Both the position numbers and the translations under genes were made by a program. The notes beneath the pieces are model-generated. The model was not told the origin of the DNA, made no database searches, and saw only the letters and a list, made by a program, of their open reading frames with translations. From Salinispira sp. (GTDB lineage: Bacteria > Spirochaetota > Spirochaetia > DSM-27196 > Salinispiraceae), in assembly GCA_965226555.1 (NCBI GenBank), contig CBDDDG010000010.1:384001-448000 (forward strand): a stretch of DNA of 64,000 nucleotides, written 5' to 3'. Shown one piece after another: positions 8,875 to 50,753 of the stretch; the stretch's first letter is position 1; each line of letters starts with the position of its first letter.

Positions 8875-8975
8875 GAAAAGTTTTGCATTTTGCAAAATTT
8901 TTTATACCTTGAGAGAATCAAGAATAGAAACTTTTGCATTGGAATATAAAGATGAGAGAATTTTCATGGAGAAAC
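8875..8975. repeat. AT-rich palindromic mini-element (family 1), degenerate composite copy
   Basis: AAAGTTTTGCATTTTGCAAAATTT hairpin + TATACCTTGAGAGAATCAAGAATAG spacer + GAAACTTTTGCATTGG. Confidence 0.75.
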
Positions 8976-9785
8976 TTAACTTCCGCAGCTTCTATTGGTC
9001 TGCGCTCTCTCCAGCGCCCGTTCAATGCTCTGTTCAAAAACGGCATATGGTTGAGCGCCGACAATAAGTTCTCCATTTATAACAAAGCTTGGGGTGCCGT
9101 CAATACCGGCTCTGCTTCCTTCGCTCCGGTCGGCAAGAATTTCATCTTCCATGGATGGATCGGCAATACAGGCGTTTATCTGCTCATCGGAAAGGCCTGC
9201 TTCCCGCGCCCAGTTGATAATGCTGCTTTCGGAAAGCTCAGATTGTTGGAAGAATAGACGGTCATGGTATGCAAAGAAGGCAGCATCGCCCAATTCCTGC
9301 GCCACACAGTTCGCCGCTACCGCAGCCGGTATTGCAAGAGGATGATAATTATCGAGCGGAAAATCCTTGAAAACAATGCGGGCTATGCCGGAATCGATGT
9401 ATGTACTCTTTATTTGAGAATAGGCGCCGATCACAAACTGCGCGCAAAAGGAACATTCAAAATCGGAGTATTCAACAATTACCACCGGCGCATCGGGATC
9501 GCCAATGGATGGATCGGACATTGTATCGATGTCGGTGTTCACACAATTGAGCGTATCCGAAGGCGCATTGCCGGGTAATGGGGCTGCAATTGGGGAAGTT
9601 GGGACATTCGGCTCCGCATTGCCGAGCGTACGGTATTCAGCCGAAAAGGTATTATAAAAACGATGCAGCCTGTTAACTCTGGCATTGGTTACCACGGCAA
9701 ATGCAAGATTTGCAATGAGCGCAGCAGCAAAGAGCCAAAGAATAACAGTATTTCTGCTTGATGATGTTTTTTTTGATGTACTCAT
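8976..9785 (-). CDS. DsbA/BdbD-like thioredoxin-fold disulfide oxidoreductase
   Basis: VEYSDFECSFC (CxxC) and GTPSFVING motifs, N-terminal TM. Confidence 0.9.
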   Translation of the reverse strand: MSTSKKTSSSRNTVILWLFAAALIANLAFAVVTNARVNRLHRFYNTFSAEYRTLGNAEPNVPTSPIAAPLPGNAPSDTLNCVNTDIDTMSDPSIGDPDAPVVIVEYSDFECSFCAQFVIGAYSQIKSTYIDSGIARIVFKDFPLDNYHPLAIPAAVAANCVAQELGDAAFFAYHDRLFFQQSELSESSIINWAREAGLSDEQINACIADPSMEDEILADRSEGSRAGIDGTPSFVINGELIVGAQPYAVFEQSIERALERAQTNRSCGS

Positions 9786-10045
9786 GTCTCTACTATAGCA
9801 TATGATTTTTTATGTTACAACAAAGTTTTGCAAAAAGCATGGGATATAAACCCCGAAATTTTTTTCTTGCACATGTTTTCTAAAACTGATAGTATGCCGC
9901 AACCGCAAAAATAATGGCGGGAGACCTCAGAATTTTTCTGAGGATGGATTTTGTGGTTGACAGATTTTGTGAGCGCAAGTATACTGCACTATATTCACGA
10001 GACCGTTGCCGCGCAACTATCTCTATTACTGTGAGGAGTGAAAGT

Positions 10046-12272
10046 ATGAGAATCAAATTTATGGGGGGGGGGGGGGGTAACTCTCCTCGCATTCTGCTCA
10101 ATGTTTATTGCATTGATGGCGGGATGTCCAATGCCGGAACCGGTGGTGGAACCACCCCCGCCGGGCACAATGGATGCCCCAAATCTTGAAGCGGGAGATG
10201 AGCAACTCATTGCAACATGGACTGCGCCAACAAACACCGGCGGCAGCGAAATTACCGGCTATGAGCTGCAATATAGCTCAGACGGCGGAACCACATGGTC
10301 GGATCCTCCTATTGAAGTCGCCGTGCCCGCCACAAAGACCATCATCACCGGCCTAATCAACGGCAGCAGTTATGAAGTACAGGTACGCGCACGGAACAGC
10401 GCGGGCGCAGGCGGCTGGTCGGACAGCGCATTAGCAAGCCCTGTTGCCGTTCCCCATGCTCCCGACTTGCCAACTCTTGAACCGGGAGATGGGCAACTCA
10501 TTGCGACATGGACTGCGCCGAGCAACGGCGGAAGCGCCATTACCGGCTATGAGCTGCAATATAGACAATATAGCGCAGACGGCGGAACCACATGGTCGGA
10601 TCCTCCTATTGAAGTCGCCGCGCCAGCCGCAAAGACCATCATCACCGGCCTAATCAACGGCAGCAGTTATGAAGTACAGGTACGCGCCGTCAACGCGCAG
10701 GGCGCAGGCGGCTGGTCGGACAGCGCATTAGCAAGCCCTGTTGCCGTTCCCCATGCTCCCGACTTGCCAAGCCTTACCGTGGAAAATGAGCAACTTCGCA
10801 TTTCATGGGCAGCGCCGACCAACACCGGCGGCAGCGACATTACCGGCTATGACCTGCGCTACGCACTAAACAATTCACCCCTGCCGGACGATCCGCAAAT
10901 TAGCAACACAAGCAATACCTCTCATACCATTATGCAACTGGAAATTGGCAGCCGCTACACCGTACAGGTGCGCGGCATCAACGCGCAGGGCAGGGGTTCG
11001 TGGTCAGAATCCGCAGCGAAAACATTCCCGCTCATTGCGACACAGGTGCCGGAGGGTACGGAGGTCTTTGTCATTCTTTCGACTGTTGACAACGCAATTG
11101 CCAATGCCGCAAACCCAAACATTACTGTGGTTCCGGTTACTTCCCCGGCATTAACGGTCGTCTTGCCGACAATTGATGCGGCTACCGGAATTATTATGGT
11201 TACCGCAAGCACAAGTCCCGGAACATATACGGTATCGGGCGCAGACGGAGGAAGCGAACTGTTCACCCCCGAAAAGTTCTCTGTTACCCTGAGTCCTCCT
11301 ACTAACGTTGCACTGAAAACAGCGGTAACTAATGGAATATCAAACTGGGGACAAACTGCCGACCTCAACTACATTCTTACTACGGCAATAACGGACATGT
11401 CCGAAGTGTTCAAAGATAAAACCGCATTCAATGGAAATATCTCGGGTTGGAATGTCAGCGCTGTAACAGATATGTCGGGGATGTTCCGTGGCGCAGGCGT
11501 ATTCAATGGAAATATCTCGGGCTGGACTGTCAGCGCGGTAACAGATATGTCGAGAATGTTCTACAACGCAGACGCATTTAATGGCGATATCTCGGGCTGG
11601 ACTGTCAGCGCGGTAACGGATATGTCCTATATGTTCAGTGGCGCAGTCGCATTCAATCGTGATCTTAATAATTGGACTGTCAGCGCTGTAACGGACATGT
11701 CGGGGATGTTCTACAACGCAGACGCATTCAATGGAAATATCTCGGGATGGACTGTCAGCGCGGTAACGGATATGTCGGGGATGTTTACTAACACATATGT
11801 ATTCAGTGGTAACATTTCCGGATGGGATGTCAGTTCGGTAACGGATATGTCGGGGATGTTCACTGCCGCAGGCGCATTCAATGGCGACATCTCCGGTTGG
11901 GATGTCAGTAAGGTAACGAATATGAGCAATATGTTCAATAACGCAGCATTCAATGGCAACATTTCCGGTTGGGATGTTAGTTCGGTAACGACTATGTATT
12001 CTATGTTCTTTTTTGCAAGCGCATTCAATGGCAACATCTCTAGCTGGGATGTCAGCTCGGTAACGAATATGTCCAGTATGTTCTTGTTTGCAAGCGCATT
12101 CAATCAGAATCTTACTGCATGGGGCGGGACAGATGCAGGGAGCTTACGGCGTGATCCTAATGATAATAGCAAATATGGAGTAACGGTAACGAATATGTTT
12201 ACGAGTTCCGGCGTTGTGGATACCGGGGGCGTGGGTGTTCCCAATTGGTATACTGAGATTATTGCCTATTAA
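10046..12272 (+). CDS. FN3 x3 + DUF285/BspA-like repeat surface lipoprotein; frameshifted at a G15 tract in the signal peptide
   Basis: GAGGAG RBS, ATG 10046, G15 at 10063-10077; with G14 the frame reads MRIKFMGGGGVTLLAFCSMFIALMAGC (lipobox); about 10 WxVSxVTDMSxMF repeats. Confidence 0.85.
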
Positions 12273-12391: not shown

Positions 12392-12445
12392 CAAAGTTTT
12401 GCTACTGGAAATTGTGCAAGCACAATTTTCCAATGCAAAACTTTC
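12392..12445. repeat. Family 1 single-hairpin copy in the rpsD leader
   Basis: CAAAGTTTTGCTACTGGAAATTGTGCAAGCACAATTTTCCAATGCAAAACTTTC. Confidence 0.9.
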
Positions 12446-15829: not shown

Positions 15830-17938
15830 ATGTCCGTCAATCAAAATCAGAATCAGACTCACATCCGAATGTCTGACCGAATATCCGAACTGGCAGAAAA
15901 AATCCGGCAGTACGATTATGAATACTATGTGCGTTCGGCTCCCTCAATAGGCGACAGAGAATATGATCATCTTTTTGATGAACTGCAACGTCTTGAAGAA
16001 CAATTTCCTGAGCTGATCCGCACCGATAGCCCCAGTCAACGGATCGGTTCCGATCTCACAAATACCTTCCCTGAGATCGCTCATACCATTCCTGTTCTCA
16101 GTCTCGATAAGGCATATTCAATGGAAGAAATACAGGTGTGGATTACCCGATGCAGCCGGGGAATGACCGAAGTCTTTCACCTGACAATTGAGGAAAAAAT
16201 GGACGGCTCAAGTCTGGTGCTCTACTATGAAAAGGGCATCCTCGTTCGGGCGCTCACCCGGGGAAACGGAGAGCAGGGAAACGACATTACCCAAAATGTC
16301 AGAACCATTCATTCAATACCGCTCAGGCTGAATACTTCCGAAAATGTCGCCATACGCGGCGAGGTGTACATCGGCATAAGCGATTTCGAAAAGATTCGTT
16401 CCACACGCGCAGGCGATTATGCGAACCCGAGAAATTTTGCAAGCGGCAGCCTCCGACGCATAAAGAGCTCCGAACTCGGCCGCATTCCCCTTCGCTTTTT
16501 TGCCTATGACCTGCACGGACAGAATTTCACCCGCTCTCATACCGAAAACATGCGCATTCTCGCCTCACTGGGAATGCCGGTAAACCCTCATCAGAAAACC
16601 ATAGCTATTCAGCCCGGCGATACCGCGAAACTATCGGAGAGCCTTAAACACATAGAAAATTTTATTACCGGCAGAGCCGAAGTCCGCGCGAAGCTCAATT
16701 ACGAAATTGACGGAATGGTTATAAAAATTGATGAAATGCCCCTCCGCGACCGCCTTGGGAGCACCGGACACCACCCCCGCTGGGCAATTGCGTACAAGTT
16801 TGAAAGCCCTCAGGGAATTACCATTGTTCAGGGTATTGATATTCAGGTTGGACGTACCGGACGGGTAACACCGGTTGCGCGGGTTAAGCCTGTGTTTGTC
16901 GGCGGCACTACTATCCGCAATGTTACCCTGCATAATCAGGACTATATACATGCCCTTGGTCTTGCGGTTGGCGATACCGTGAGTGTCTCCCGCCGCGGGG
17001 ATGTTATTCCTGCTGTCGAATGCGTGCTGGAGAAGGGAAATGAGATATCTTGGGACATGCCGCCCGCCTGCCCCTTCTGTTCAGGCATTCTCCGCAAAGA
17101 TGGTGCTCATCATTTTTGCCCGAATTTTGACTGCCCTGCCCGTAAGAAGGGGCGGATTATCTTTTTTACCGGCAGGAATCAGATGGACATTGAGAATCTT
17201 GGCTCTGAAACCGTTGCCGCGCTCATTGATGAAGGAATTATACAGGATATTCCCGATATTTTTTGTCTCGATTATGATCGGATACGCGCCCTCCCCGGCT
17301 TCGGAGAAAAAAAGGTACAGCTCATTCGGGAAGGTGTTGAAAAGGCGCTCACGCAGCCCTATCGGCGTATTATGATCAGCCTCGGCATTTCAGACTTTGG
17401 CCCGAAACTTGCCGAACTGCTGGAAGAGCATTCGTATAGGAGCATAGCTTCCCTGTTCACCCTTCTCGATGCACATGATGAGCGCAGCCTCACCGACATA
17501 AAGGGAATTGGCGAAAAAACCGTTCAGACCATATCACAGGAAATGCGGGAACCGCGATTCAGGGATATGATAGATAGGCTTACGGAGCTCGGGTTGGTGT
17601 TCACGGCAGATGATGGGCGCGCGGGCGCGGAAGATACGCAGATTGGGGGCGGCGCAGATCGAGGCGCGCAGATCGGGGCGGCGCAGATTGGGGCGGCGCA
17701 GATTTTTTCTTCTCAGCGATGGTGCGTGACCGGCAGCTTTGAAGCATTCAAACCTCGTTCGCTGGCAATTGAAGAAATAAAAAAGAGGGGCGGAGACGTA
17801 ACCTCGGACGTAACGGGAAAAACCACCCACCTCCTTGCCGGAAATTCGGCGGGCAGTAAGCTTGCGAAGGCGCAAAAACTCGGGATCGCAATTGTGCATG
17901 AGAATGAATTTATTACTGCGCTGAAGGAAGAAAAGTAA
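15830..17938 (+). CDS. ligA: NAD-dependent DNA ligase
   Basis: EEKMDG active-site motif, GRTGRVTP, Zn finger, C-terminal BRCT. Confidence 0.97.
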   Translation: MSVNQNQNQTHIRMSDRISELAEKIRQYDYEYYVRSAPSIGDREYDHLFDELQRLEEQFPELIRTDSPSQRIGSDLTNTFPEIAHTIPVLSLDKAYSMEEIQVWITRCSRGMTEVFHLTIEEKMDGSSLVLYYEKGILVRALTRGNGEQGNDITQNVRTIHSIPLRLNTSENVAIRGEVYIGISDFEKIRSTRAGDYANPRNFASGSLRRIKSSELGRIPLRFFAYDLHGQNFTRSHTENMRILASLGMPVNPHQKTIAIQPGDTAKLSESLKHIENFITGRAEVRAKLNYEIDGMVIKIDEMPLRDRLGSTGHHPRWAIAYKFESPQGITIVQGIDIQVGRTGRVTPVARVKPVFVGGTTIRNVTLHNQDYIHALGLAVGDTVSVSRRGDVIPAVECVLEKGNEISWDMPPACPFCSGILRKDGAHHFCPNFDCPARKKGRIIFFTGRNQMDIENLGSETVAALIDEGIIQDIPDIFCLDYDRIRALPGFGEKKVQLIREGVEKALTQPYRRIMISLGISDFGPKLAELLEEHSYRSIASLFTLLDAHDERSLTDIKGIGEKTVQTISQEMREPRFRDMIDRLTELGLVFTADDGRAGAEDTQIGGGADRGAQIGAAQIGAAQIFSSQRWCVTGSFEAFKPRSLAIEEIKKRGGDVTSDVTGKTTHLLAGNSAGSKLAKAQKLGIAIVHENEFITALKEEK

Positions 17939-17940
17939 TA

Positions 17941-18091
17941 GAAACTTTTGCATAAAGCAAAAGTTTCCGATCTGGAATGCTTTCTTTGTGCTTAGCATTC
18001 TCCAATTTTATAGAAAGTTTTGCATTTTGCAAAACTTTGTAATAGGAACAAAGTTTTGCTACTGGAAATTGTGCAAGCACAATTTTCCAAT
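17941..18091. repeat. Family 1 composite palindromic element
   Basis: Three hairpins plus the GAATGCTTTCTTTGTGCTTAGCATTC spacer. Confidence 0.9.
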
Positions 18092-18176: not shown

Positions 18177-18230
18177 CAAACTTTGGCTACTGGAAATTGC
18201 GCAAGCGCAATTTTCCAATGCAAAAGTTTC
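18177..18230. repeat. Family 1 single-hairpin copy
   Basis: GCTACTGGAAATTGCGCAAGCGCAATTTTCCAATGCAAAAGTTTC. Confidence 0.9.
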
Positions 18231-20190: not shown

Positions 20191-20475
20191 CCAAAATAAT
20201 AAAACTTTTTACAAAAATTTCCCATTTTGTCATACACTATTCATATTTTACCCGTCTATATGGTATGGGGAAAAAATATATCGGTATGGTACATGACAAA
20301 AGCTGGAAATATGTTTTCGGGAATGCTCAGATATTCAGGGATTTCATATATTCATACTTCAACAAAGACCTCGCGCTGAGCATTGTTCCCGGGAGTATGC
20401 TGAGCATCAACCCTGAATTTATCCACAAAGGCGAACTCAGGCATTCCATCTCCGATGTCATTTACAAAACTACGT

Positions 20476-21815
20476 GAAACCTTTGAATAACTCCATTATA
20501 TCTGCCGGTAGTCTTTTTTCCACGCAGAAAAAATTATTCATCGTTTTTCACGTTATTCTCTTCAGCATCCTCCGTCTTTTTTCGGCGCGATACGCGCTAT
20601 ATTCGTTCTTTTTTTCATCTTTTTTCAGTATTTCCCTCATTTCCGGCAGCAGTACCGCCATAAGGGCACAGCTATCCTGTTGTTATGCCGCAACCGCAGA
20701 GTTTTCCGGCGCCATGTTCCCCATTCGCCGTTTCATGCCGATCATCTGTTTCAGATTATACATAATCGCCATACACATAAACCGACTCTGATTCCTCTGA
20801 ACTCCCATATACCGCGCCTTTCTTGCGCCGCAATGGAGTTTGCTCAGACCAAAAAACCGCTCCACCGTATTCCTTACGCGCGACCGCCCGTAATTCGCCT
20901 GCTTCTGTTCATCGGTTAACGGTGTGTTCCGATACGCCCGCTCATGTATTTGATTCTCTATGCCCATCTCCTCAAGCATCGCAGCAATCGCTTTACTCCG
21001 GTACGCGGCATCCGCGTACACCACCGTCTCATTTCCCATAATCAATTCGCCAAATAGTTTGCTGTCATGAATATTGGCCGCAGTCACCAGCAGTTTCTTC
21101 GCCCGTCCCTTCTCATTTACCGTCACGTGTATCTTGAAACCGTAGGTTGTTCGTACCGTTCCATCGCCTCCCTTCTTACTCGCGTAGGCCGCTTCAGGAT
21201 CCTGTGTCGATTCTCCTGCGTCATTTTTTTTCTTCCGATGCCGCGAAGCCTGTATCACACTCGCATCAATTATGCTGACTGTGCCCCGGTGCACTTCACA
21301 ATCCTGCGTGTCCAACTGCGCATTCACCGTGTCCAAGAGCGCGCTGAGAATATTCTTACGGGTCAGTTGTTCCCGAAACCGCCATATCGTGGAATGATCG
21401 GGAGTTTCGTCGAGAACATTGAGCCCCACAAAACGCTTGTATGCCAAGTCGCAGGCAAGCGCATTTTCCATGCCTTCATCGCTGAGATTCTGCCACGATT
21501 GCAGCAACAGCACTTTGAACATCATAACCGGATGATATCCTTTCGCGCCCATCGATTTGTTGTTGATAGCACAGAGCATCTCCCCAATTTCCTTCCAATT
21601 GATCAGTTCATACAGGCTATCGAAGCGTTTCAGCGCTTTACTTTCCTGAATACCCTGATTGATCAGCGATCCATGATGTTCTTTCCAATTATTTCCCATT
21701 GTGTTCTCCTGTTTCAGCGCCGGACAGCGCGCAATACAACCCGATTGCTCATTCCCAGCTCTCTGTGTGAATTTTCTTCAAAATACCATTATTCCCGATG
21801 ATGTGCAAAGGTTTC
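20476..21815 (-). mobile_element. IS5-family insertion sequence, 1340 bp
   Basis: Terminal IRs GAAACCTTTG...CAAAGGTTTC, flanking TACGT duplication (20471-75 and 21816-20). Confidence 0.9.
20683..21699 (-). CDS. IS5-family DDE transposase
   Basis: PDHSTIWRFR, IIDASVI, YADAAY, RNTVERFFG motifs. Confidence 0.93.
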   Translation of the reverse strand: MGNNWKEHHGSLINQGIQESKALKRFDSLYELINWKEIGEMLCAINNKSMGAKGYHPVMMFKVLLLQSWQNLSDEGMENALACDLAYKRFVGLNVLDETPDHSTIWRFREQLTRKNILSALLDTVNAQLDTQDCEVHRGTVSIIDASVIQASRHRKKKNDAGESTQDPEAAYASKKGGDGTVRTTYGFKIHVTVNEKGRAKKLLVTAANIHDSKLFGELIMGNETVVYADAAYRSKAIAAMLEEMGIENQIHERAYRNTPLTDEQKQANYGRSRVRNTVERFFGLSKLHCGARKARYMGVQRNQSRFMCMAIMYNLKQMIGMKRRMGNMAPENSAVAA

Positions 21816-21873
21816 TACGTGCCGTTTCAAAGATAGCGCGCGGAAACCGAAACCGCTCGATGTCTACTTTATC

Positions 21874-22002
21874 ACCAAAGTTTTGCCACAGGCAAAACTT
21901 TCTAAAAATAGGAGAATGCTAAGCACAAAGAAAGCATTTCGAATCTGAAACTTTTGCTACTGGAAATTGCGCACGCGCAATTTTCCAATGCAAAAGTTTT
22001 GT
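21874..22002. repeat. Family 1 element inserted in Rpn pseudogene
   Basis: Splits codons ...VYFI / IEFQS... Confidence 0.9.
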
Positions 22003-22109: not shown

Positions 22110-22208
22110 TAAAGTTTTGCCTCAGGCAAAACTTTCTATACCTTGAGAGAATCAAGAGTATAGATGAGAGAATCCTTATTTGAAAATTTTGCAGAGCAAA
22201 ATTTTCAG
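22110..22208. repeat. Family 1 element inserted in Rpn pseudogene
   Basis: AAAGTTTTGCCTCAGGCAAAACTTT + GAGAGAATC-type spacer + GAAAATTTTGCAGAGCAAAATTTTC. Confidence 0.9.
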
Positions 22209-22505: not shown

Positions 22506-22630
22506 CAAAGTTTTGCCTCAGGCAAAACTTTCTATAAAGTGCGAGAATGCTCCGCACATAAAAGTATTCCAAATGAGAAACTTTTGCTACTGGAAATTGT
22601 GCAAGCACAATTTTCCAATGCAAAAGTTTC
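22506..22630. repeat. Family 1 element truncating the Rpn pseudogene and abutting the next lipoprotein gene
   Basis: Two hairpins plus spacer; 3' hairpin and downstream sequence shared with 18177 onward. Confidence 0.9.
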
Positions 22631-24650: not shown

Positions 24651-25802
24651 TCTCAAAATAATAAAAATAATTACAAAAATTTCTCATATTCACCGTTCAT
24701 ATTTTACCCGTCTATATAGTATGAGCAAAAAGTATATCGGCATGGTACACGCTGGAAATATGCTTTTGAAAATCCCCTGATATTCAGGGACTTCATATAC
24801 TCATATTTCAACAAGGACCTCGCGCGGAGCATTGTTCCCGGGAGCGTGCGTCAATACACCCTATAATACAGGGCGAATTCAACCATACGCTCACCCCGCA
24901 TTCCCGAGCCCTCTCCCTCCGAAAAAAATTCACACATTTTGCAAATTTTTTCCAAAAACACAATAAAAAATGACAGTTTACCCGTCACAGATATAGAGGA
25001 GAGAATTCACCATGGGACCATGTCGCCATGGGAGCTCCCCTATTCAGAAAGAAACGTTCAGGAGGATTGTATGATCGATTTCAAAGAAAAACCCACCCCC
25101 GTTCCCTACGACCAAGGATACCGCTCCCTGCTGTTCCAACCCGCAATAATGCTCCAATTTCTTCAACGCTTTGTCGGAGGCGCATGGACGAAAAAACTGC
25201 GAACCGAGGACATAACCATTGAAAACGGTACCTTTTTCATCGACCATGCGAAAACACGGATGGCCGACATCGTCTGCAAAATCAGAACTCGGGATCACAC
25301 GGGAGATGTTGTCATTTATGTGCTCCTTGAGCATCAGTCTGGAGTGGACAAAGACATGCCCCTCCGCATGTCGGAGTACACGAATCTGCTCTATCGGAAC
25401 ATTCATCGCTCCGGAGCAATTCCCGATGACTGCGAGTTGATATTTCTGCCCATTGTGTTCTATAATGGTACACGAAAATGGAAGGTGCCCGGGAATGTCA
25501 GAGAGCAACGGAAGCGGGAATTCCCGCAGTATCTTGCCCCCTTTCCCTACGATCTGATAAGTGAGAACGATTATTCTGCGGAGCAGTTGCAGCAGCGGGG
25601 AAGAATGTTTGCGGCTGTTATGTACCTTGATCTGTACTCGAAAAATCTGCTGAATACGGATTGGGACATTCAGAAGACGGAGAAAGCGATAGCAGAAATG
25701 CTGAATGAGGAATCGCTGGAGCTGATAGAGGAATTTGTCGGCGTGGTAGATTCTATGTTCGGAATTGTTATAGATTTAGATACGTTAATGAACCGATTAG
25801 AA

Positions 25803-25929
25803 GCAAAGTTTTGCCAGAGGCAAAACTTTCTATAAAATTGGAGAATGCTAAGCACAAAGAAAGCATTCCGAATTTGAAACTTTTGCTACTGGAAATTGTG
25901 CTTGCACAATTTTCCAATGCAAAAGTTTC
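25803..25929. mobile_element. Family 1 element, 127 bp, flanked by AGAA duplication
   Basis: Absent from the paralogue at about 29110; AGAA at 25799-802 and 25930-33. Confidence 0.9.
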
Positions 25930-25969
25930 AGAAAGAACAAAAGAACCGAGAGGTAAGGAGGTAGCAAAA

Positions 25970-26170
25970 ATGTTCAGAATGAATGCGGAAACATTCAGAG
26001 CGCGCATTGCGGAGATGGGTCGGCAGGAAGGCCGCGCTGAGGGGCATATTGAGGAGCGGAGAAAAAACGCCCGCAGTATGTTTTTGGAAGGGTTGTCGAC
26101 CGAGGCTGTTCAGAGAATTACCGGGCTGAGCGATGAGGAAATGCGGACATTGCGGAACGGATCGCATTAA
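25970..26170 (+). CDS. Putative RpnS-like small C-terminal protein (66 aa), intact
   Basis: AAGGAGGT SD 7 nt before ATG; GRQEG repeat and ITGLS..E helix-turn-helix-like tail. Confidence 0.65.
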   Translation: MFRMNAETFRARIAEMGRQEGRAEGHIEERRKNARSMFLEGLSTEAVQRITGLSDEEMRTLRNGSH

Positions 26171-27852: not shown

Positions 27853-27980
27853 CCGAAAATTGTGCTCCGCACAATTTTCTAATCTGGATTCTCTCATCTC
27901 TATTCGTGATTCTCTCAAGATATAGAAAGTTTTGCTACTGAAAAATTGTGCAGAGCAAAATTTTCAGTAGCAAAACTCTG
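27853..27980. repeat. Family 1 element at the same junction as 45562
   Basis: Same flank and first ~80 bp as 45562-45645. Confidence 0.9.
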
Positions 27981-28383
27981 TAATAAAACTTTCTCATATT
28001 CACCATTCATATTTTACCCGTCTATATAGTATGAGCGGAAAATATATCGGAATGGTACACGCTGGAAATATGCTTTCGAAAATCCCCGGATATTCCGGAA
28101 CTTCATATACTCCTACTTCAACAAGGACCTCGCGCGGAGCATTGTTCCCGGGAGCGTGCGTCAATACACCCTATAATACAGGGCGAATTCAACCATACGC
28201 TCACCCCGCATTCCCGAGCCCTCTCCCTCCGAAAAAAATTCACACATTTTGCAAATTATTTCCAAAAACACAATAAAAAATGACAGTTTACCCGTCACAG
28301 ATATAGAGGAGAGAATTCACCATGGGACCATGTCGCCATGGGAGCTCCTCCCCTATTCAGAAAGAAACGTTCAGGAGGATTGT

Positions 28384-29412
28384 ATGATCGATTTCAAAGA
28401 AAAACCCGCCCCCATTCCCTACGACCAGGGATACCGCTCCCTGCTGTTCCAACCCGCAATAATGCTTCAATTTCTTCAACGCTTTGTCGGAGGCGCATGG
28501 ACGAAAAAATTGCGAATCGAGGACATAACCATCGAAAACGGTACCTTTTTCATCGATCATGCGAAAACACGGATGGCCGACATTGTCTGCAAAATCAGAA
28601 GTCGGGATCACACGGGAGATGTTGCTATCTATGTGCTCCTTGAGCATCAGTCCGGCGTGGACAAAGACATGCCCCTCCGCATGTCGGAGTATACGAATCT
28701 GCTCTATCGGAACATTCACCGCTCTGGAGCAATTCCCGATGACTGTGAATTGGTATTTCTTCCCATTGTGTTCTATAATGGAACTCGAAAATGGAAGGTG
28801 CCGGGGAATGTCAGAGAGCAACGGAAGCGGGAATTCCCGCAGTATCTTGCCCCCTTTCCCTACGATCTGATAAGTGAGAACGATTATTCTGCGGAGCAGT
28901 TGCAGCAGCGGGGAAGAATGTTTGCGGCTGTTATGTACCTTGATCTGTACTCGAAAAATCTGCTGAATACGGATTGGGACATTCAGAAGACGGAGAAAGC
29001 GATAGCAGAAATGCTGAATGAGGAATCGCTGGAGCTGATAGAGGAATTTATCGGCGTGGTAGATTCGATGTTCGGAATTGTTATAGATTTAGATACGTTA
29101 ATGAACCAGTTACAAAGAACAAAAGAACCGAGAGGTAAGGAGGTAGCGAAAATGTTCAGAATGAATGCGGAAACATTCAAAGCGCGCATTGCGGAAATGG
29201 GTCGGCAGGAAGGATTGCAGACAGGACTGCGAACAGGTCGTGAAGAAGGACTTCAAAAGGGGCTACAGGCAGGCCGCGCTGAGGGGCATATTGAGGAGCG
29301 GAGAAAAAACGCCCGCAGTATGTTTTTGGAAGGGTTGTCGACCGAGGCTGTTCAGAGAATTACCGGGCTGAGCGATGAGGAAATGCGGACAGTGCGGAAC
29401 GGATCGCATTAA
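28384..29412 (+). CDS. Rpn-family PD-(D/E)XK nuclease (type A), intact
   Basis: CAGGAGG RBS + MIDFKEK; RMADIV, LLEHQSGVD, PIVFYNG, C-terminal GxxEG repeats. Confidence 0.9.
   Translation: MIDFKEKPAPIPYDQGYRSLLFQPAIMLQFLQRFVGGAWTKKLRIEDITIENGTFFIDHAKTRMADIVCKIRSRDHTGDVAIYVLLEHQSGVDKDMPLRMSEYTNLLYRNIHRSGAIPDDCELVFLPIVFYNGTRKWKVPGNVREQRKREFPQYLAPFPYDLISENDYSAEQLQQRGRMFAAVMYLDLYSKNLLNTDWDIQKTEKAIAEMLNEESLELIEEFIGVVDSMFGIVIDLDTLMNQLQRTKEPRGKEVAKMFRMNAETFKARIAEMGRQEGLQTGLRTGREEGLQKGLQAGRAEGHIEERRKNARSMFLEGLSTEAVQRITGLSDEEMRTVRNGSH
29152..29412 (+). CDS. Internal in-frame RpnS-like ORF (86 aa)
   Basis: AAGGAGGT at 29137-44, ATG 29152. Confidence 0.65.
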   Translation: MFRMNAETFKARIAEMGRQEGLQTGLRTGREEGLQKGLQAGRAEGHIEERRKNARSMFLEGLSTEAVQRITGLSDEEMRTVRNGSH

Positions 29413-29564: not shown

Positions 29565-29680
29565 TGATCAGCCCGGACGCATGGGCGAGCAATCGAAAAA
29601 AAGGCAGGCACGGGGGCTGGTCGGCGCCCCGCGCCTGCCTGAGTTGAATTGCAATGTTTCAATAGCCGCTGGGGGCTATG
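29565..29680. repeat. GC-rich family 2 repeat between convergent Rpn and lipoprotein genes
   Basis: AAAAAAGGCAGGCACGGGG...CCCCGCGCCTGCC hairpin; near-identical to 26325-26437. Confidence 0.8.
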
Positions 29681-33446: not shown

Positions 33447-33618
33447 GCCGTATTATATATCAGAAAAAAAATATAATGGCAATACAAAATTGTGCATTTT
33501 GCAAAACTTTGTTCAGGACTATTAAGGGCAGACAGATAGTTCGCTGTGCGTTATACACGACGAAAGATGGAGATGTGGAGATTTATGTGAAGGAGACTGA
33601 AGTTGGGGGTTGCGGCTA

Positions 33619-42386: not shown

Positions 42387-43559
42387 TCATGGAAGCATTT
42401 CCAGAGACCACAGTTTGGATATGGTCAGTTCGCTGTCATTGCGTACATCTTGTTGTCTGGTATAACTGGAAGGATCTCGGTCAAGCCATACCATGTTTTT
42501 AAGAGATATGGAATCCATTGCTTCAGGGTGATGCGATATGACTATGGACTGAGGCAGCTCGCTACCGGCCGCATCTTCCAACTCAAGAAACAGAGGTTTT
42601 ATTTCCTGGAGCATGAGAAAATTATCGGGTTCATCGAGCAACAGTAATCGCTCATTACTGTCGCCAAAAACGATATTAAACAGGACAATAACAAAGTTTT
42701 GCATTGGAAAATTGTGCTTGCACAATTTCCATGAGCAAAACTTTCTATAAAATAGGAGAATACTAAGCACAAAGAAAGCATTCCAGATCGGAAACTTTTG
42801 CTTTATGCAAAAGTTTCTAATTATGATTTGCCCGATCGATAGTTGATCACAATGAAATAAGAATGAGAATTCTTCATTTTTTTCTGAGCGAAATGAGGCT
42901 TTTAATTCACGATATTTTTCCCCGCCTGTTCCATGAAAATGAAGACCATTATACCCGGGAAGAATTTCTTGAATTCTTGTATCAACTTTTTCGTTTATAT
43001 TCTGGTAATTTGCAAGGAGGTTATTTCTATACCACGACGCAAAATTTTCTGCATGAGAATGTAAAAAAACAGATTCAGAAATGGAGCTGGGCACTATCTG
43101 CCATGGATCAGGACTGAGCGCAACTATTCCCTGCACCCACTTCCGAAAGAGTAAAAGAGATCTGTTGAATTCTTCTTTAAACTCCAAGGTAAAACCTGAA
43201 ATAGTCCAATTAAAGGGAAATGTGGGACCTTCCCTATATTCATGATTAGGTGTTTCTTCGGAAAACATATGCGCCTCGCCCATTTCTATTTTCAATATGG
43301 GCCGATCATTCAAAAGAAGTTCTTCCTTTTTTACGCGCGCTTTTTCAGTGCCGCGCTCATGTTCAATAATGAGCTTATACACATACCGAAATTCTTCAGC
43401 ATCATCTAACACTTCCAGTTCAAATGTTTGATCGCTGTGAGTCATGAACTTACTCATACATTTGTAGTTATCAATGTGAATTCGCCGTAACAAAAGGCGA
43501 GGCTTATCCGACTGCGCTACCATAGAGAAAAACATATCATAAAGTTTTGCAAAATGCAA
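42387..43559 (-). pseudogene. AAA_21/ABC-type ATPase lacking Walker A, with an in-frame family 1 insertion
   Basis: RRIHIDNYKC start motif, LSIGQ signature, LLLLDEPDN Walker B, SHHP; no GxxGxGKS visible. Confidence 0.7.
42692..42817. mobile_element. Family 1 element, 126 bp + TAA duplication, in frame
   Basis: TAA at 42689-91 and 42818-20; adds 43 codons. Confidence 0.9.
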
Positions 43560-43685
43560 AAGTTTCTATTACAAAGTTTTGCCTGTGGCAAAACTTTCTA
43601 TACCTTGAGAGAATCAAGAATAGAGATGAGAGAATCCTCATTGGAAAATTTTGCAAAGCAAAAGTTTCTATTACAAAGTTTTTTC
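43540..43685. repeat. Family 1 composite element between divergent genes
   Basis: Three hairpins + GAGAGAATC-type spacer. Confidence 0.88.
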
Positions 43686-45488: not shown

Positions 45489-45860
45489 ACTGTTTTCTCC
45501 TCCAGGGAACAGTTCCCTGTTAATTTTCTCAAACTGTTCATACAGTCCCAGATCTTTTATACCGAAAATTGTGCTCCGCACAATTTTCTAATCTGGATTC
45601 TCTCATCTCTATTCGTGATTCTCTCAAGATATAGAAAGTTTTGCCTTGGAAAATTGTGCTCTGCACAATTTTTCAATGAGGATTCTCTCATCTATACTCT
45701 TGATTCTCTCACGGTATAGAAAGTTTTGCCTCAGGCAAAACTTTGTTGTGGCAAAACTTTGGTATAACCCAGCACACTTTCTGCCAGATCAGTAAAGTCT
45801 TGTGAAGACAGACCGTTCAGGAGCTGCGCAATCTCTTTCAGCCCCTCAGCATCCATCTCA

Positions 45861-45960
45861 CTGAAAATTGTGCTCTGCACAATTTTCAAATGAGGATTCT
45901 CTCATCTATACTCTTGATTCTCTCACGGTATAGAAAGTTTTTCCTAAAGGAAAAACTTTG
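45861..45960. mobile_element. Family 1 element, 100 bp, flanked by TCA duplication
   Basis: TCA at 45858-60 and 45961-63; empty site in paralogue at about 47510. Confidence 0.92.
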
Positions 45961-47079
45961 TCATTATCTCGCATTATATACCACAACGCAGTTGATGTAT
46001 ATCGGTTTCCATCGGAGCGCAATGCCAACTGCTTCTTTGTCATTCTCCTCAGATCGCGCACAATGTACGACACTTTCACCTTGACATCTACCGTGCCTTC
46101 GATCATGGATTCGGAAGCAGCATTTCCATGAGAACTGTAAAATGTGAGGGGGAGGTTCCATTCCTTTTTTCCATGGTAGAGCAGCAGTATATAGATAGCA
46201 TCATTTTCATTGTACACATTGCTGTTTCTGAGGGCATGCTACAGAAACTTTTGCATTGGAAAATTGTGCAAGCACAATTTCCAGTAGCAAAAGTTTCAAA
46301 TTCGGAATGCTTTCTTTGTGCTTAGCATTCTCCTATTTCATAGAAAGTTTTGCCTGTGGCAAAACTTTGTGATAATTATCAATCTGTGTGAGAGCATGTT
46401 TATTCAGGTAGCTTTTATGCTCAATACAAAAGTTTTGCTACTGGAAATTGTGCTTGCACAATTTTCCAAGGCAAAACTTTCTATACCGTGAGAGAATCAA
46501 GAATAGAGATGAGAGAATCCTCATTTGAAAATTTTGCGGAGCAAAATTTTCAGTAATGAATAGAGCCTTCCGCTTGGGGTCTGACAGGAAGGGGGCGCTG
46601 ACAACGAGATCGCAGAGAAGGTTCTTTTTTCCCGCAATGTAGCTGGGGGTTTCAATGCGGATTTTGCCCAGATCCAGCTTGGCAAGCGTTGTATCCTCAC
46701 AGAACAGCCGCAGCAGGTCGAGAATCATCCGGGGGGTTCTGTAGTAGGCGATCTTGAAGGCTATGTCGTGGATGTGGCCTGTGCTGTGGGATGATTTTTT
46801 CATACATTTTCCTCCTACATCTGTGACGGGTAAAATGTCATTCTCGACTATGTATTTTGAAAGAATGTTGTGATTTTTTTCGGGGAGTCGGGAATGGGGG
46901 CTGGTATGCTCTGAGTCGATACTCTCCACGATCCCCGGAACAATGCTCCGCGCGAGGTTTTTGTTGAAGTATGAATATATGAAGTCCCAGAATATCTGAG
47001 CATTCCTGAAGGAACTGGTATGTGAGGTTGATCTGGATGTTGATGTTATCCGCTCTGCGCGCAGGCCGAGCAGCGATAA

Positions 47080-48093
47080 TTAATGCGATCCGTTCCGCAC
47101 TGTCCGCATTTCCTCATCGCTCAGCCCGGTAACATCCTGAATGTCATGAGCTAAAAATCCTTTGGAAAACATACTGCGAGCGTTTTTTCTCCGCTCCTTA
47201 ATATGCCCCTCAGCGCGACCTGCCTGAAGTCCTTCCTGTCGGCCCTTTGTGATACCCTGCTCAAGACCTTCAACACGGCCTTTCAGAATACCCTTCTCCA
47301 TACCTTCCCTGACGAAGGCGTTGGTTATGTTATATGTCCGCATACTGTTTTCTCCTCCAGGGAACAGTTCCCTGTCAATTTTCTCAAACTGTTCATACAG
47401 TCCCAAATCTTTTAGATAGCCTAGCACACTCTCTGCCAGATCAGTAAAGTCTTGTGATGACAGACCGTTCAGGAGCTGCGCAATTTCTTTCAGCCCCTCA
47501 GTGTCCATTTCATTATCTCGCATTATATACCATAACGCAGTCGATGTATATCGTTTTCCATCGAAACGCCATGCCAACTGCTCCTTTTTCATTCTACAAA
47601 GATCGCGCACAATGTACGACACTCTCGCCCTGACATCTACCGTGCCTTCAGTCATAGATTCGGAAGCTGGATTTCCATGCGAACTGTAAAATGTGAGTGG
47701 GAGGTTCCATTCCTTTTTTCCATGGTAGAGCAGCAGTATATAGATAGCATCATTTTCATTGTACACATTGCTGTTTCTGAGGGCATGCTGATAGTTATCA
47801 ATCTGTGTGAGAGCATGTTTATGCTGGTAGCTTTTGTGTTCAATAATGAATAGGGATTTCCGCTCGGGGTCTGACAGGAAGGGGGCGCTGACAACGAGAT
47901 CGCAGTGAAGGTTCTTTTTTCCTGCAATGTAGCTGGGGGTTTCAATGCGGATTTTGTCCATGTCCAGCTTGGCAAGCGTTGTATCCTCACAGAACAGGCG
48001 CAGCAGGTCGGGAATCAGCCGGGGGGTTCTGTAGTAGGCGATCTTGAAGGCTATGTCGTGGATGTGGCCTGTGCTGTGGGATGATTTTTTCAT
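47080..48093 (-). CDS. Rpn-family PD-(D/E)XK nuclease (type B), intact; internal RpnS-like start at 47343
   Basis: AGGAGG RBS + MKKSSHSTGHIHDIAFK; CDLVV, IIEHKS, LLLYHG; GxxEG repeats. Confidence 0.88.
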   Translation of the reverse strand: MKKSSHSTGHIHDIAFKIAYYRTPRLIPDLLRLFCEDTTLAKLDMDKIRIETPSYIAGKKNLHCDLVVSAPFLSDPERKSLFIIEHKSYQHKHALTQIDNYQHALRNSNVYNENDAIYILLLYHGKKEWNLPLTFYSSHGNPASESMTEGTVDVRARVSYIVRDLCRMKKEQLAWRFDGKRYTSTALWYIMRDNEMDTEGLKEIAQLLNGLSSQDFTDLAESVLGYLKDLGLYEQFEKIDRELFPGGENSMRTYNITNAFVREGMEKGILKGRVEGLEQGITKGRQEGLQAGRAEGHIKERRKNARSMFSKGFLAHDIQDVTGLSDEEMRTVRNGSH

Positions 48094-48304
48094 ACATTTT
48101 CCTCCTACATCTGTGACGGGTAAAATGTCATTTTTGACTATGTTTTTTGAAAGAATGTTGTGATTTTTTTCGGGGAGTCGGGAATGGGGGCTGGTATGCT
48201 CTGTGTTGATATACTTTTTGCTCATACTATATAGACGGGTAAAATATGAACGGTGAATATGAAAAATTTTTGTAATTATTTTTATTATTTTGAGATATTA
48301 CTAT

Positions 48305-48528: not shown

Positions 48529-48529
48529 A

Positions 48530-50062
48530 CTAATACCATGACGGCACCAGACTACCTGTCACGCCGGAACCACCAAACACATTTTGTTTGCTTCCGGTAT
48601 ATTTGCCATTGGCATCAAGCGTCCAATGATCCTTCCACTCCTCAAGATTCTGATTGAATGCGAGTGCGATACGGAACATCTCGTCCATATTCGTTACCGA
48701 ACTGACATCCCAGCCGGAGATATCGCCATTGAACACACTTATTCCATAGAACATATAGCCCATATTCATTACCGAACTGACATCCCATCTTGAGACATCG
48801 CCATTGAATGCGTTTGTAGCACGGAACATTTCGTACATATTCGCTACCGAACTGACATCCCAGCCGGAGATATCGCCATTGAATGCGGTCTTACTCTTGA
48901 AAACAGTGGACATATCCGTTACCGCAGTGGTAATAATGTAGTTGAAATTGCCAGTATTTCCCCATGTTGATATCCCGTCAGTTACCGCTGTTTTCAGTAG
49001 AGCGTTAGTTGTTGGACTCACGGTAACATATAAATACTCGGCAAAGACTATGTCTCCGCTTCCGGTTTCACCATATACCACATATGTTCCTGCCGTTGTA
49101 CTCGCGGTAACCGTAACAATTCCGGTAGTCGTATCAACTGTCGGAATGGTGACCGTTCCGGGCGGAGTTGCGGGGGTTACCTTCAGGTCTCCTCCTTCAA
49201 TCGTGAGAGTGCCCGGTTCTACCGTGGTCAAAGAAACACTGAGGTTCTCATTGGCAATAATGGCAGTAACAATGGCATTGAAGGCATACGAAAGGGTAAT
49301 AGTCACTTCCTCCCCAGGAGTCTGTGTCACAGAATCTGTTGGTGTTTTCATTGCGATTTCCGACCAGTCGCCAGCGCCAACTGCATTGACGGCGCGTGTC
49401 TGTACTTGGTAGATGGCGCCGTTTATCAGGTCGCTAATGACGTGGCTTGTACTTGTACCGTCAATGCCTTCGGTAATAATTTCCCAGCTTCCGCTACCGT
49501 CTTCCCTATGGCGCAGGTGGTATGCGGTAATTTCGCTGCCGCCGTTATCGGTTGGCACAGTCCATGTGGCAACGAGCTGCTCAGGGCCCGCATAAAGGGT
49601 TGGAGTAGCCATTGTACCCGGCGCAGCGGGGGGCACCACAGTTGGTGGCGCAATAGGTGTTGCAGTGGAAGACGCTGACCAGCCACCGGTGCCCTGCGCG
49701 TTGACGGCGCGCACCTGCACAGCATAATTGACGCCGTTTGTTAGTCCGGTAATGGTATGACTTGCGCCGGTAATACCGGAGGTAATTTCCGTCCAGTTCT
49801 CGCTGCCGACTTCACCATAGCGCAGATTGTACGCGGTAATATCGTTTCCTGCGTTGTTCTCCCCCCAATTCCATGTAGTCGGATCGATCCACGATGCAGT
49901 AAGCTGTTCGCTCCCTTCTATGAGAGTTGGAGCATACATGGCAGGCGGCGCAGTCAGCATGGGGCATGCAGCGACGAGCACTGTCAGGATGACGATAAAA
50001 CCGCTCAGCACATAGGCGCTGACAGGCTTCTTGTTTTTTCGGTTAATGCGTAAAATTTGCAT
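48530..50062 (-). CDS. FN3 x2 + DUF285/BspA-like surface lipoprotein (intact)
   Basis: LVAAC lipobox, two FN3 domains, WDVSSV repeats, PSWY end. Confidence 0.9.
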   Translation of the reverse strand: MQILRINRKNKKPVSAYVLSGFIVILTVLVAACPMLTAPPAMYAPTLIEGSEQLTASWIDPTTWNWGENNAGNDITAYNLRYGEVGSENWTEITSGITGASHTITGLTNGVNYAVQVRAVNAQGTGGWSASSTATPIAPPTVVPPAAPGTMATPTLYAGPEQLVATWTVPTDNGGSEITAYHLRHREDGSGSWEIITEGIDGTSTSHVISDLINGAIYQVQTRAVNAVGAGDWSEIAMKTPTDSVTQTPGEEVTITLSYAFNAIVTAIIANENLSVSLTTVEPGTLTIEGGDLKVTPATPPGTVTIPTVDTTTGIVTVTASTTAGTYVVYGETGSGDIVFAEYLYVTVSPTTNALLKTAVTDGISTWGNTGNFNYIITTAVTDMSTVFKSKTAFNGDISGWDVSSVANMYEMFRATNAFNGDVSRWDVSSVMNMGYMFYGISVFNGDISGWDVSSVTNMDEMFRIALAFNQNLEEWKDHWTLDANGKYTGSKQNVFGGSGVTGSLVPSWY

Positions 50063-50753
50063 ATCTTACCTCCGTAAAGTTTTATTCACAGAAACTTTTG
50101 CATTGGAAAATTAATGCTTGAGCTGACCCTCCTCCCAGTGTGAAACGAAAGGTATTCGTATACACTGGGGCGAGGCGGATGACTCATGAAAATTGCCGGA
50201 CTTCTCACTGAGCCTGACTCACCGACCGCCCGGGCAGTATGAAAGCGGGGAGCGGAAGCTCGGCGTTGCTGTTCTTGCTACCTGCGGGCGCGGGCATTCG
50301 GCTCATCTGATATGGCGCGCGGTATTTCCCGAGAGAACCGTGTGCGCTCATCTTCTCTACAACGAATTTTCTTCAACAGAGGCGATAAGGGACGGAGCGC
50401 CCGCCTCCTCCTAGGAGAAACCGATGTTCACCAGCTCACCGATGCCCTAGTCGATGCCCTCTCATCAGCGCATCCCCCAGCAAAAACCACATCAAAAAAC
50501 GCAAAGACGGCAACATCGGATCATGCAATAGTAACTGCCAATTTTGAATATGCGTGGGCTTAGCGGGGCTGACGATTATACATTAGGGCAGAACTTCCCG
50601 GAACCAAAAACAATATGTTTGAAATTTTTGCATTTTGCAGAAATTTTTTGCATTTTGCAAAACTTTCGAGTATACTTTTATATCTGGTAAACATTTTTGC
50701 ATAAATAAAATTTTGCAAAGCTTTACGGTAAAAAAAATATGGAGGTGAGTACC

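Follow-up and report, generated by a model that had tools for sequence, protein, structure and literature searches.

Mini-elements and genes in the window

The 64-kb window, that is, the whole stretch of DNA analyzed here, carries many copies of a gene-less mini-element, an autonomous IS5-family insertion sequence (IS), and a filled and an empty paralogue of an Rpn gene (Table 1). All 18 coordinates listed in the initial annotation bear the arms, cores, or spacers described there, and the window contains 25 AAA[GC]TTTTGC and 23 GCAAAA[CG]TTT motifs. The element at 25804 is flanked by AGAAG and AGAAA, the empty target being AGAAA, and contains a promoter-like TTGCCA-16-TAAAAT sequence (25811-25838).

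Table 1. Mini-elements, IS5-family element, and Rpn genes in the 64-kb window
Feature	Position	Strand	Remarks
Degenerate hairpin, shortened spacer 2, start of second hairpin	8875..8945	+	
Solo long hairpin, 54 bp	12392..12445	.	Upstream of rpsD; without 5-bp duplication
Short hairpin-spacer 1-short hairpin, 99 bp	17941..18039	-	Exact TAATA (17936-17940, 18040-18044)
Long hairpin	18049..18091	+	Cut by end of unrelated IS remnant
Solo long hairpin, 54 bp	18177..18230	.	Before RBS of FN3/DUF285 gene; right flank common to 22506 copy
Autonomous IS5-family insertion sequence, 1340 bp	20476..21815	-	Ends GAAACCTTTGCA / GAAACCTTTGAA; likely mobilizer
IS5-family DDE transposase, 338 aa, intact	20683..21699	-	D/D/E motifs present
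Spacer-1 element, 126 bp	21876..22001	+	Last base worn; end coordinate approximate
Spacer-2 element, 97 bp	22110..22206	+	Ends at inner-type hairpin; net 5-bp duplication, proximal bases altered
Spacer-1 element, 125 bp	22506..22630	+	Before FN3/DUF285 gene
Rpn (PF04754) gene, filled allele	24939..26170	+	Interrupted by 25804 element
Canonical element, 126 bp	25804..25929	+	Splits Rpn gene 40 bp before likely internal start
Spacer-2 element, 126 bp	27855..27980	-	Long left hairpin
Intact Rpn paralogue	28249..29412	+	Homologous site empty
Solo short hairpin, 27 bp	33485..33511	.	Worn
Spacer-1 element, 126 bp	42692..42817	+	Hairpins swapped (long left, short right)
Solo hairpin, 27 bp	43540..43566	.	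Joined to next element via one TATTA
Spacer-2 element, 97 bp	43572..43668	+	Exact TATTA (43567-43571, 43669-43673)
Compound of two spacer-2 units, 198 bp	45564..45761	-	In Rpn pseudogene
Spacer-2 element, 98 bp	45863..45960	-	Flanks TCACT/TCATT; same Rpn pseudogene as preceding compound
Spacer-1 element, 126 bp	46244..46369	-	Net 4-bp duplication
Spacer-2 element, 124 bp	46428..46551	+	Long left hairpin
Half hairpin, truncated	50091..50110	+	
Slipped short hairpin, 47 bp	50621..50667	.	Arm duplicated

Family size and architecture

The modular parts and the two spacers initially described were recovered, and the family extends far beyond the approximately 18 copies first recognized: BLAST identified 599 loci genome-wide, totaling 49.6 kb or 1.7% of the 2.98-Mb spirochaete genome, with the gene-less mini-element itself present in approximately 580 copies. 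The elements occur in 27-, 54-, 98-, 126-, and 153-bp forms; in the 126-bp form, hairpins of 27 and 54 bp are joined by a spacer of 45 bp. In accordance with a MITE, the units are short (25-153 bp) and contain no long ORF of their own, and their 11-12-bp arms point outward as terminal inverted repeats in which bases 1 and 5 are variable. Each end of the element is a hairpin built from two transposon ends.

The hairpins folded more stably than shuffled sequences in all four copies analyzed (z -5.4 to -8.9). Paired changes in the stem (46 GC/GC and 44 TT/AA, compared with 280 GT/AC and 26 half-changed GT/GC or GC/AC pairs) bear out the stem-keeping substitutions noted initially. Selection on an RNA stem need not be their cause, since the cores also lie in both orientations (CACAG 23 versus CTGTG 19; inner AA 76 versus TT 80), as inversion at the DNA level would produce; the cores probably invert between arms.

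The initial description of the family as mobile, modular, and unrecognized is supported: Rfam yielded no match in the window at the gathering score, the family was absent from related genomes (0/60 and 0/98), and PLSDB plasmids provided no match. The long-core pattern was found in neither metagenome contigs nor viral contigs. A comparison of four contig sets over one 20-kb stretch with three elements revealed no bridged empty site.

Target duplication and filled and empty sites

Target duplications were scored at 181 independent sites, with the ends set at the 11-12-bp arm. An exact 5-bp duplication was present at 67 sites, compared with 2.0 in shuffled controls (maximum 9), a 33-fold excess over chance. 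Other lengths contributed little (4 bp, 5 versus 1.1; 6 bp, 2 versus 0.1), and 2, 3, and 7-9 bp showed no enrichment. The 126-bp class carried the exact duplication in 16/25 cases. The filled and empty paralogue pairs cited initially as proof of insertion were substantiated by 131 filled copies in 35 site clusters, 27 of which exhibited a net 5-bp duplication. The accompanying claim of short, inconsistent duplications holds only in part: merely two copies in the window have exact duplications (17941-18039, TAATA; 43572-43668, TATTA), and the flanks differ at two or more of the five bases at 92/181 sites genome-wide, but the fixed length of 5 bp is evident across the genome. Lineages differ in this respect, the exact duplication being found in 23/36 A-core elements, 1/6 C-core spacer-1 elements, and 0/17 spacer-2 elements ending at the inner hairpin, so that this last class departs from the fixed-length pattern. 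Because the C-core and spacer-2 inner-ended classes seldom duplicate exactly, the older lineages may have had another mobilizer or another history.

The target motif is (C)TANTA(G) (symmetrized, n = 134: C 65, T 101, A 67). Palindromic extension of the flanks was observed 4 times, compared with 2.2 expected. Among the exact sites, 31/134 ends start with C rather than G; a C-starting end is odd for a DDE transposon.

These data bear on the possibility that the elements are REP/BIME- or PATE-like palindromes moved by an HUH tyrosine (RAYT/TnpA) transposase. REP/BIME/REPIN and PATE (HUH Y1) insertions occur without target duplication, a property that the present family does not share. The hairpins and linkers do resemble BIMEs, and a matching duplication is missing at over half of the sites; moreover, look-alike hairpins at 58 or more loci in the genome collection (left out of the family count), including same-arm hairpins in Pseudanabaena and Thermococcus, showed a 5-bp duplication in 0/58 of the matches listed. 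However, the excess of exact duplications, a 131-bp insert equal to the 126-bp element plus 5 bp, and the agreement of ends and target with the IS5 element described below all argue against this mechanism, and PF01797 had no match in the genome (0/5 candidates; genome 93.5% complete). The flanks outward of the hairpin are a variable (C)TANTA target and not the fixed GTAG/CGTC tag. Membership in these classes was rejected on the basis of the missing Y1 transposase, the missing tag, and the 5-bp duplication, which largely rules out an HUH mechanism; we consider it very improbable.

The co-resident IS5-family element

The 1340-bp IS5 element is bounded by an exact 5-bp duplication (TACGT, + strand, 20471-20475 and 21816-21820). 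Its 338-aa transposase scored 228.8 bits against NF033581 (cut-off 140), matched PF01609 and PF05598, and was 45.8% identical to the ISAba23 transposase; seven copies without stops are 99-100% identical. The MITE end GAAACTTTTGCA matches either IS end at 11/12 positions, and the odd base is found in 6/13 IS right ends. Of 10 IS end pairs, 7 have the exact 5-bp duplication, and among the three that do not, two belong to interrupted copies (7/8 uninterrupted); the IS targets the same (C)TANTA(G) motif as the MITE (n = 14: C 6, T 13, A 9). The ends, the duplication length, and the target are thus common to the family and an autonomous IS in the same genome. At three junctions in two loci, IS copies abut MITE-like ends through one common 5-mer.

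In a BLAST search of the genome, the 1340-bp IS matched only IS copies and fragments and not the hairpin family, contrary to a type I MITE; the spacers do not resemble the interior of the IS, so the MITE did not arise from it by simple deletion. Eight pairs of MITE ends lying 250-6000 bp apart shared a 5-mer (a count made without a control), and none (0/8) enclosed a cognate transposase; these pairs were given no evidential weight. The 84 ORFs with arms on either side encode, as judged by eye, Rpn, lipoprotein, and housekeeping genes. None of the remaining multi-copy ISs (IS481-like, IS1182, IS3, IS982, IS30, a 395-aa type, and a third IS5 flanked by TATA, 4 bp) has matching ends; proteins were grouped by word clustering, and these labels, IS5 and IS982 excepted, are our own reading of the proteins.

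The mobilizer, at present or for the older lineages, could instead be another IS5, either a lost one or the 377-aa element with GAGA(T/C)CATTGCA ends. The latter exhibits 5-bp duplications in 5/5 end pairs, one copy lies within the duplication of a MITE, and exact duplications are rare in the older C-core and spacer-2 lineages. Nevertheless, its ends match the MITE at only 9/12 positions, compared with 11/12 for the 338-aa IS, and its targets start with T in 1/5 cases, compared with 101/134 for the MITE and 13/14 for the 338-aa IS. We regard a different IS5 driver as unlikely.

The fixed 11-12-bp ends, the 5-bp duplication, and the autonomous partner in the window place the family in a known class, the IS5-type MITEs. 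The initial annotation had not recognized a described family, and by the condition that it named for its own refutation, a known MITE/REP family with fixed ends and TSD, this reading is largely contradicted. These findings strongly suggest that the family is a type II IS5-family MITE that was likely mobilized in trans by the 1340-bp IS5 element and was likely reshuffled later.

Probable collapse and reshuffling after insertion

The form of approximately 126 bp is probably the active form of the MITE. Since each hairpin consists of two ends back to back, the outermost arms would act as the transposon ends. Since the two hairpins also repeat each other in direct orientation, recombination or slippage between arms likely reduces the element at its site to solos of 54 or 27 bp and likely also expands it or swaps its hairpins. 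Of 69 composites, 62 combine a left hairpin bearing G/G arms with a right hairpin bearing C/C arms; among the duplication-bearing solos (n = 37), 21 combine one arm of each type and only 9 have both arms from one hairpin. At one Rpn site, 54-bp (9 copies), 126-bp (3), and 153-bp (1) forms share the same TGAA-type duplication, and the occurrence of three forms at one homologous site points to collapse and exchange after insertion.

Recombination between neighboring copies would likely explain many of the non-matching flanks. The copy at C2:50552 has flanks that stem from two insertion sites, which lie 195 bp from each other. Traceable hybrids between sites numbered only 1-3; the search returned nine rows, from which four self-matches, one tandem-repeat artefact, and one paralogue with a worn element were dropped.

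Altered junctions

Older copies retain the net 5-bp duplication, but they do not match the target at the two bases adjoining the element. Across the 27 filled/empty clusters, deviations from the empty target affected 40/108 of the proximal two bases compared with 15/162 of the distal bases (p = 6e-8, the clusters being not fully independent). For these junctions only, we tentatively propose as a possible, though doubtful, explanation that the transposase brings a few donor-flank bases on the 5' overhang of the element and so generates mosaic duplications at some new sites. Such carry-over is a piggyBac-like chemistry. It agrees with the clustering of mismatches on the two adjacent bases while the length stays at +5, and with the presence of G two bases past the right end in 15/17 spacer-2 inner-ended and 5/6 C-core spacer-1 elements, compared with 4/36 A-core elements. 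However, the autonomous copies are nearly all perfect (7/8 uninterrupted; second IS5, 5/5), and the non-exact sites of the 181-site set exhibit no excess of middle-base matches (38/114 versus approximately 33). Copies of one insertion also differ among themselves at the element-adjacent bases, an indication that these bases changed once the element was in place. Alternatively, copies may have undergone later gene conversion that reached 1-3 bases beyond the end. Through these mosaic junctions, the chemistry at the ends of this IS5 subgroup is open to direct testing.

Comparison with known systems

A published table of IS5-type MITE ends includes two Porphyromonas gingivalis elements with ISPg1/4/9 ends, BrickBuilt and MITEPgRS, and one Neisseria meningitidis element with ISNme1 ends, ATR (PMC4596501). 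As described there, these elements, to which the family is akin, resemble it in being non-coding, in having an IS similarity limited to 12-bp GA(G/A)ACC(T/A)TTGCA-type ends, and in having a partner IS with the same TTGCA/TTGAA left-right asymmetry; variable duplications were also reported for BrickBuilt (PMC4596501). In contrast, they occupy approximately 19 loci (PMC4596501) compared with approximately 580, and the present family has a two-end hairpin at each end and 27- and 54-bp solos. The sequence relation appears to stop at the ends, as judged without direct alignment. MITEPsy1 of Pseudomonas syringae, a 100-nt element with IS5-like ends, was shown to transpose in vivo, which proves that the class moves; the available description gives it 18-nt single ends, a 4-bp CTAG/YTAA duplication, and six copies (PMC3189936).

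Among named elements, ISAba23 (IS5 family) is most closely related to the partner IS, and its left end is identical over 13 bases. Unlike the MITE, ISAba23 is autonomous, and the single copy for which the ends were determined lacked matching 5-bp flanks. BOX elements are modular, with boxA, boxB, and boxC units. According to the accessible text of PMC3184786, bcr1 of Bacillus cereus resembles the present family in its length (approximately 155 bp), cruciform structure, 5-bp direct repeats, and compensatory changes, and BOX of Streptococcus pneumoniae in its variable length (67-637 bp); that text does not present their modules as IS-end pairs, a distinction based on description only. REP/BIMEs with RAYT and TIR repeats with TIRYT likewise comprise hundreds of extragenic palindromes as singles and linker-joined dimers in the part of PMC3733652 available, whereas the present family has a 5-bp duplication and DDE-type ends, and no Y1 transposase was found in its genome.

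As selfish DNA, the family belongs to a known class. It differs from that class in the hairpin of two ends at each terminus and in its likely collapse and reshuffling after landing, and it offers a clear natural record of the way in which paired IS ends can give rise to a MITE family that is rearranged where it lies. Our literature search, which covered few subscription journals, returned no relevant account of minimal MITEs made of double ends or of scars left by collapsed IS5 elements. Similar double-end hairpins of 25-32 bp occur at 40 loci in unrelated metagenomes; therefore, this route may be general and overlooked by MITE finders with a 50-bp floor. Going further, we can only speculate, with little confidence, that IS5 elements with ISPg1/ISNme1/ISAba23-type ends collapse to 25-32-bp two-end hairpins, leaving scars in unrelated organisms that remain usable by the transposase and that pair around short captured DNA into composite MITE families. 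Such hairpins might even move by themselves at about half the size of prokaryotic MITEs (50 bp and up), and the transposase might carry donor-flank bases to new sites in a piggyBac-like manner.

Host genes

Many copies probably multiplied afterward by being carried along with two expanded gene families, Rpn and FN3/DUF285. That the expanded Rpn (PD-(D/E)XK) nucleases themselves make or move the elements might be argued from the 136 matches to the Rpn C-terminal anchor and from the 141/577 loci lying in Rpn-cassette spans, which constitute 7.5% of the genome. However, this enrichment is inflated through passive copying (one insertion in up to 18 copies), the elements lie inside Rpn genes, which they disrupt at many different places, and paralogues without an element are more numerous than those with one. 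In addition, rpn genes do not encode conventional transposases, according to a section heading of a preprint (10.1101/2023.05.02.539157). A causative role of Rpn is, in our assessment, extremely improbable.

Outward promoters showed no polarity bias (12 versus 9 of 42). Besides making up 1.7% of the genome, the family is of local consequence for the host: an element lay within 45 bases of an RBS-start motif at 77/181 sites, compared with 20% of control sites. Rpn toxin-antitoxin genes were struck repeatedly, and some of these insertions separate the nuclease domain from the likely start of the antitoxin.

Extent and anatomy of the MITE family

The initial annotation had proposed a modular palindromic repeat at 18 window positions, and the arms, cores or spacers claimed were found at all 18. 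The genome holding the window (2.98 Mb in 26 contigs; 93.5% complete, 6.7% contaminated) was searched by BLAST with ten window copies as queries, and 599 loci covering 49,577 bp were identified; merging reduced these to 580, of which 577 were tokenised. The flagellar and lipoprotein genes of this genome pointed to a spirochaete. The basic unit was an 11-12-bp arm, [GC]AAA[ACG]TT[TG]TGC, with 1646 exact matches genome-wide. The 27-bp hairpin comprised 5 bases flanked by two back-to-back arms, and the 54-bp hairpin an outer arm pair enclosing an inner one. The most frequent composite, consisting of short hairpin, spacer 1 and long hairpin, measured 126 bp and occupied 55 loci at 25 independent sites. 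Most spacer-2 forms had an inner-type hairpin as an end; this 97-bp version occupied 30 loci, which correspond to 8 sites. Four copies folded into hairpins with z scores of -5.4 to -8.9 relative to shuffles.

A search of the window against Rfam returned no matches, the hairpin pattern was found in none of 60 relatives, and the 126-bp element was found in none of 98 other genomes of the same order. In two samples of a second study, contigs differing from the source genome by dispersed substitutions covered one element at a depth of 457-465 and the adjoining DNA at 3-7, indicating that the family is high-copy in a related population. This IS5-type MITE family is real, confined to one lineage and present in high copy number. 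Two reviews (PMC10969869, PMC11602168) give MITE sizes of 50-500 or 50-800 bp and put the copy number of ERIC at as many as 711. Feature coordinates are presented in the table.

Coordinates of the elements, genes and repeats discussed (G000, whole source genome; C, contig; L087, 20-kb stretch of that genome)
Feature	Location	Remarks
1340-bp IS5-family element	window 20476-21815 (-)	338-aa transposase at 20683..21699
126-bp MITE copy	window 25804..25929 (+)	splits Rpn gene 24939..26170
Rpn (PF04754) genes	window 24939-26170, 28249-29412, 47080-48225	~130 genes or fragments genome-wide; several subfamilies, many tandem
FN3 + DUF285 lipoprotein genes	window 10101-12272, 18271-20031, 22658-24409, 29676-31931, 48530-50062	large family; MITE frequently immediately upstream of RBS
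Conventional deletion derivatives of the 1340-bp IS	G000:C12:84257-84724, C1:328979-329196, C2:84360-84578, C23:24484-24699	C12 derivative is a chimera with the 3' region of a third IS5
IS5 copies abutting a MITE-like end	G000:C14:98462-99955, C10:181971-183310	joined via a single shared 5-mer
IS481-like element	G000:C2:11263-12477 (example)	~20 copies; TGGGAT ends; long target duplications, roughly 15-16 bp by eye
GC-rich second repeat	G000:C10:562300-562345 (example)	short variable units; 3' of many Rpn stop codons; also breaks up some spacer-1 MITE copies
11-kb island	G000:C14:5319-16409 (L087:4319-15409)	absent from related population

Target duplication and the probable partner IS

With ends placed at the outer arms, the first end calls yielded exact 5-bp duplications at 47/237 sites; improved end calls yielded 67 of 181 unique sites versus 2.0 in shuffles, and 89 with at most one mismatch versus 14.6. 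Among the 181 sites, duplications of 4 and 6 bp were mildly enriched (5 versus 1.1 and 2 versus 0.1), and no other length was enriched relative to shuffles. Exact duplications flanked 16/25 of the 126-bp, 17/60 of the 27-bp, 16/54 of the 54-bp and 0/8 of the 97-bp spacer-2 sites. Insertion, earlier deduced from filled and empty paralogues, was confirmed by 131 filled copies with an ungapped empty counterpart in paralogue families; these formed 35 site clusters with a net duplication of 5 bp in 27, 4 bp in three, 6 bp in two, 3 bp in two and 7 bp in one. The description of the duplications as short and inconsistent was borne out in part: the 67 sites had an exact 5-bp duplication, and at 92 of the 181 the flanks differed at two or more of 5 bases.

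Compared among multi-copy ISs, the 1340-bp element ended in GAAACCTTTGCA and GAAAC(C/T)TTTGAA, and the MITE end GAAACTTTTGCA differed by 1 base from either. Its transposase belonged to the IS5 family (NF033581, 228.8 bits versus a cut-off of 140), had seven stop-free copies 99-100% identical, and was 45.8% identical to that of ISAba23, the left ends of the two ISs being identical across 13 bases. Exact 5-bp duplications were found at 7/10 end pairs, two exceptions being interrupted copies, and the target motif (C)TANTA(G) was common to MITE and IS. A second IS5 element of the genome (377 aa) was weighed as the partner; it likewise duplicates 5 bp, but fits the MITE more poorly in both ends and target. 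No Y1 HUH transposase was found in this 93.5% complete genome. Ends of this type are tabulated in PMC4596501 for ISPg1 and ISNme1 and for their MITEs BrickBuilt, MITEPgRS and ATR; the present family belongs to this known class of IS5-type MITEs.

Certain right-end fragments of the 1340-bp IS start at a MITE-type arm. Where IS5 copies abut MITE-like ends, an element end plus its duplication restores the preferred target.

Flanks that do not match

At the mismatched sites the flank of each end still resembled the target, with T at -5 in 110/184 ends and A at -1 in 124/184, which is consistent with hybrid formation between copies or with adjacent deletions. An unambiguous hybrid junction united two known sites 195 bp apart, and two further cases were less certain. 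A separate pattern emerged in the 27 net +5 clusters, in which mismatches to the empty target numbered 40/108 at the two element-proximal bases versus 15/162 at the distal bases of the duplication, and 16/270 in the outer flanks. Exact duplications occurred in 23/36 A-core spacer-1, 1/6 C-core spacer-1 and 0/17 spacer-2 inner-ended sites, and a G two bases beyond the right end in 5/6 C-core spacer-1 and 15/17 spacer-2 inner-ended sites; the altered proximal bases are confined by lineage. Carry-over of donor flanks would fit these bases, but the IS junctions were nearly perfect, the 181-site set had no middle-base excess, and copies of a single insertion varied among themselves. On these three grounds, later conversion is favoured.

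Probable origin of modularity

In 62/69 composites, arm position 5 was G on both left-hairpin arms and C on the right-hairpin arms. Of 37 solo hairpins with exact duplications, 21 had one arm of each kind and 9 both of the same kind; the remaining 7 carried a T variant not assignable to either hairpin. Solo LTRs are an analogous product of deletion between direct repeats, and a composite would collapse to a solo in the same way through its directly repeated arms; as judged from sequence, the mixed-arm solos fit the remnant expected. Solos may also move autonomously. One homologous Rpn site carried the 54-bp form nine times, the 126-bp form three times and a 153-bp form once, besides 29 empty-like matches. 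Core orientation relative to the spacer was mixed (CACAG 23/CTGTG 19; CTGAG 15/CTCAG 9; inner loop AA 76/TT 80), except for the nearly one-way AAAAT 31/ATTTT 3. The paired stem changes noted in the initial annotation were real (46 double versus 26 single at one pair), but the copies are related by descent, and such changes would arise from inversion or from template switching without RNA-level selection.

Host genes and genomic context

An RBS-start motif lay within 45 bases of 77/181 MITE sites; among 3000 control sites in non-coding DNA the share was 20% (p 9e-11). Either a bias in targeting or the persistence of insertions that do no harm could account for the excess. Rpn genes were greatly expanded (136 anchor matches genome-wide, a few spurious). 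Many are disrupted by MITEs or ISs, and several independent insertions lie directly before the start or a likely internal start. Rpn proteins are described in 10.1101/2023.05.02.539157 as toxin-antitoxin genes-within-genes. The 126-bp copy at 25804 severed the long Rpn frame 40 bases upstream of a likely internal start and contained a promoter-like site; loss of the toxin with retention of the antitoxin is predicted.

The 11-kb island was bridged by a single contig and had near-zero depth in two runs; its boundaries had no MITE ends.

Double-end hairpins outside this lineage

Metagenomes were scanned for two canonical IS5-type ends placed back to back, and 40 loci (L100-L139; 25-32 bp) at 28 distinct sites in unrelated metagenomes were identified. 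Exact 5-bp duplications flanked 3/26 testable sites (0.44 expected), and 4-bp duplications two. L129 consisted of a hairpin, a 34-bp spacer and a hairpin, and a similar spacer adjoined seven other loci. These hairpins and the form of L129 indicate that the hairpin-of-two-ends architecture recurs.

Same-arm hairpins of Pseudanabaena and Thermococcus (L006-L063) had a 5-bp duplication in 0/58 among the matches listed and were set apart from the family. Both have 3-base loops, recurring directly 3' of tRNA-like sequences in Thermococcus and in the middle of long palindromes in Pseudanabaena.
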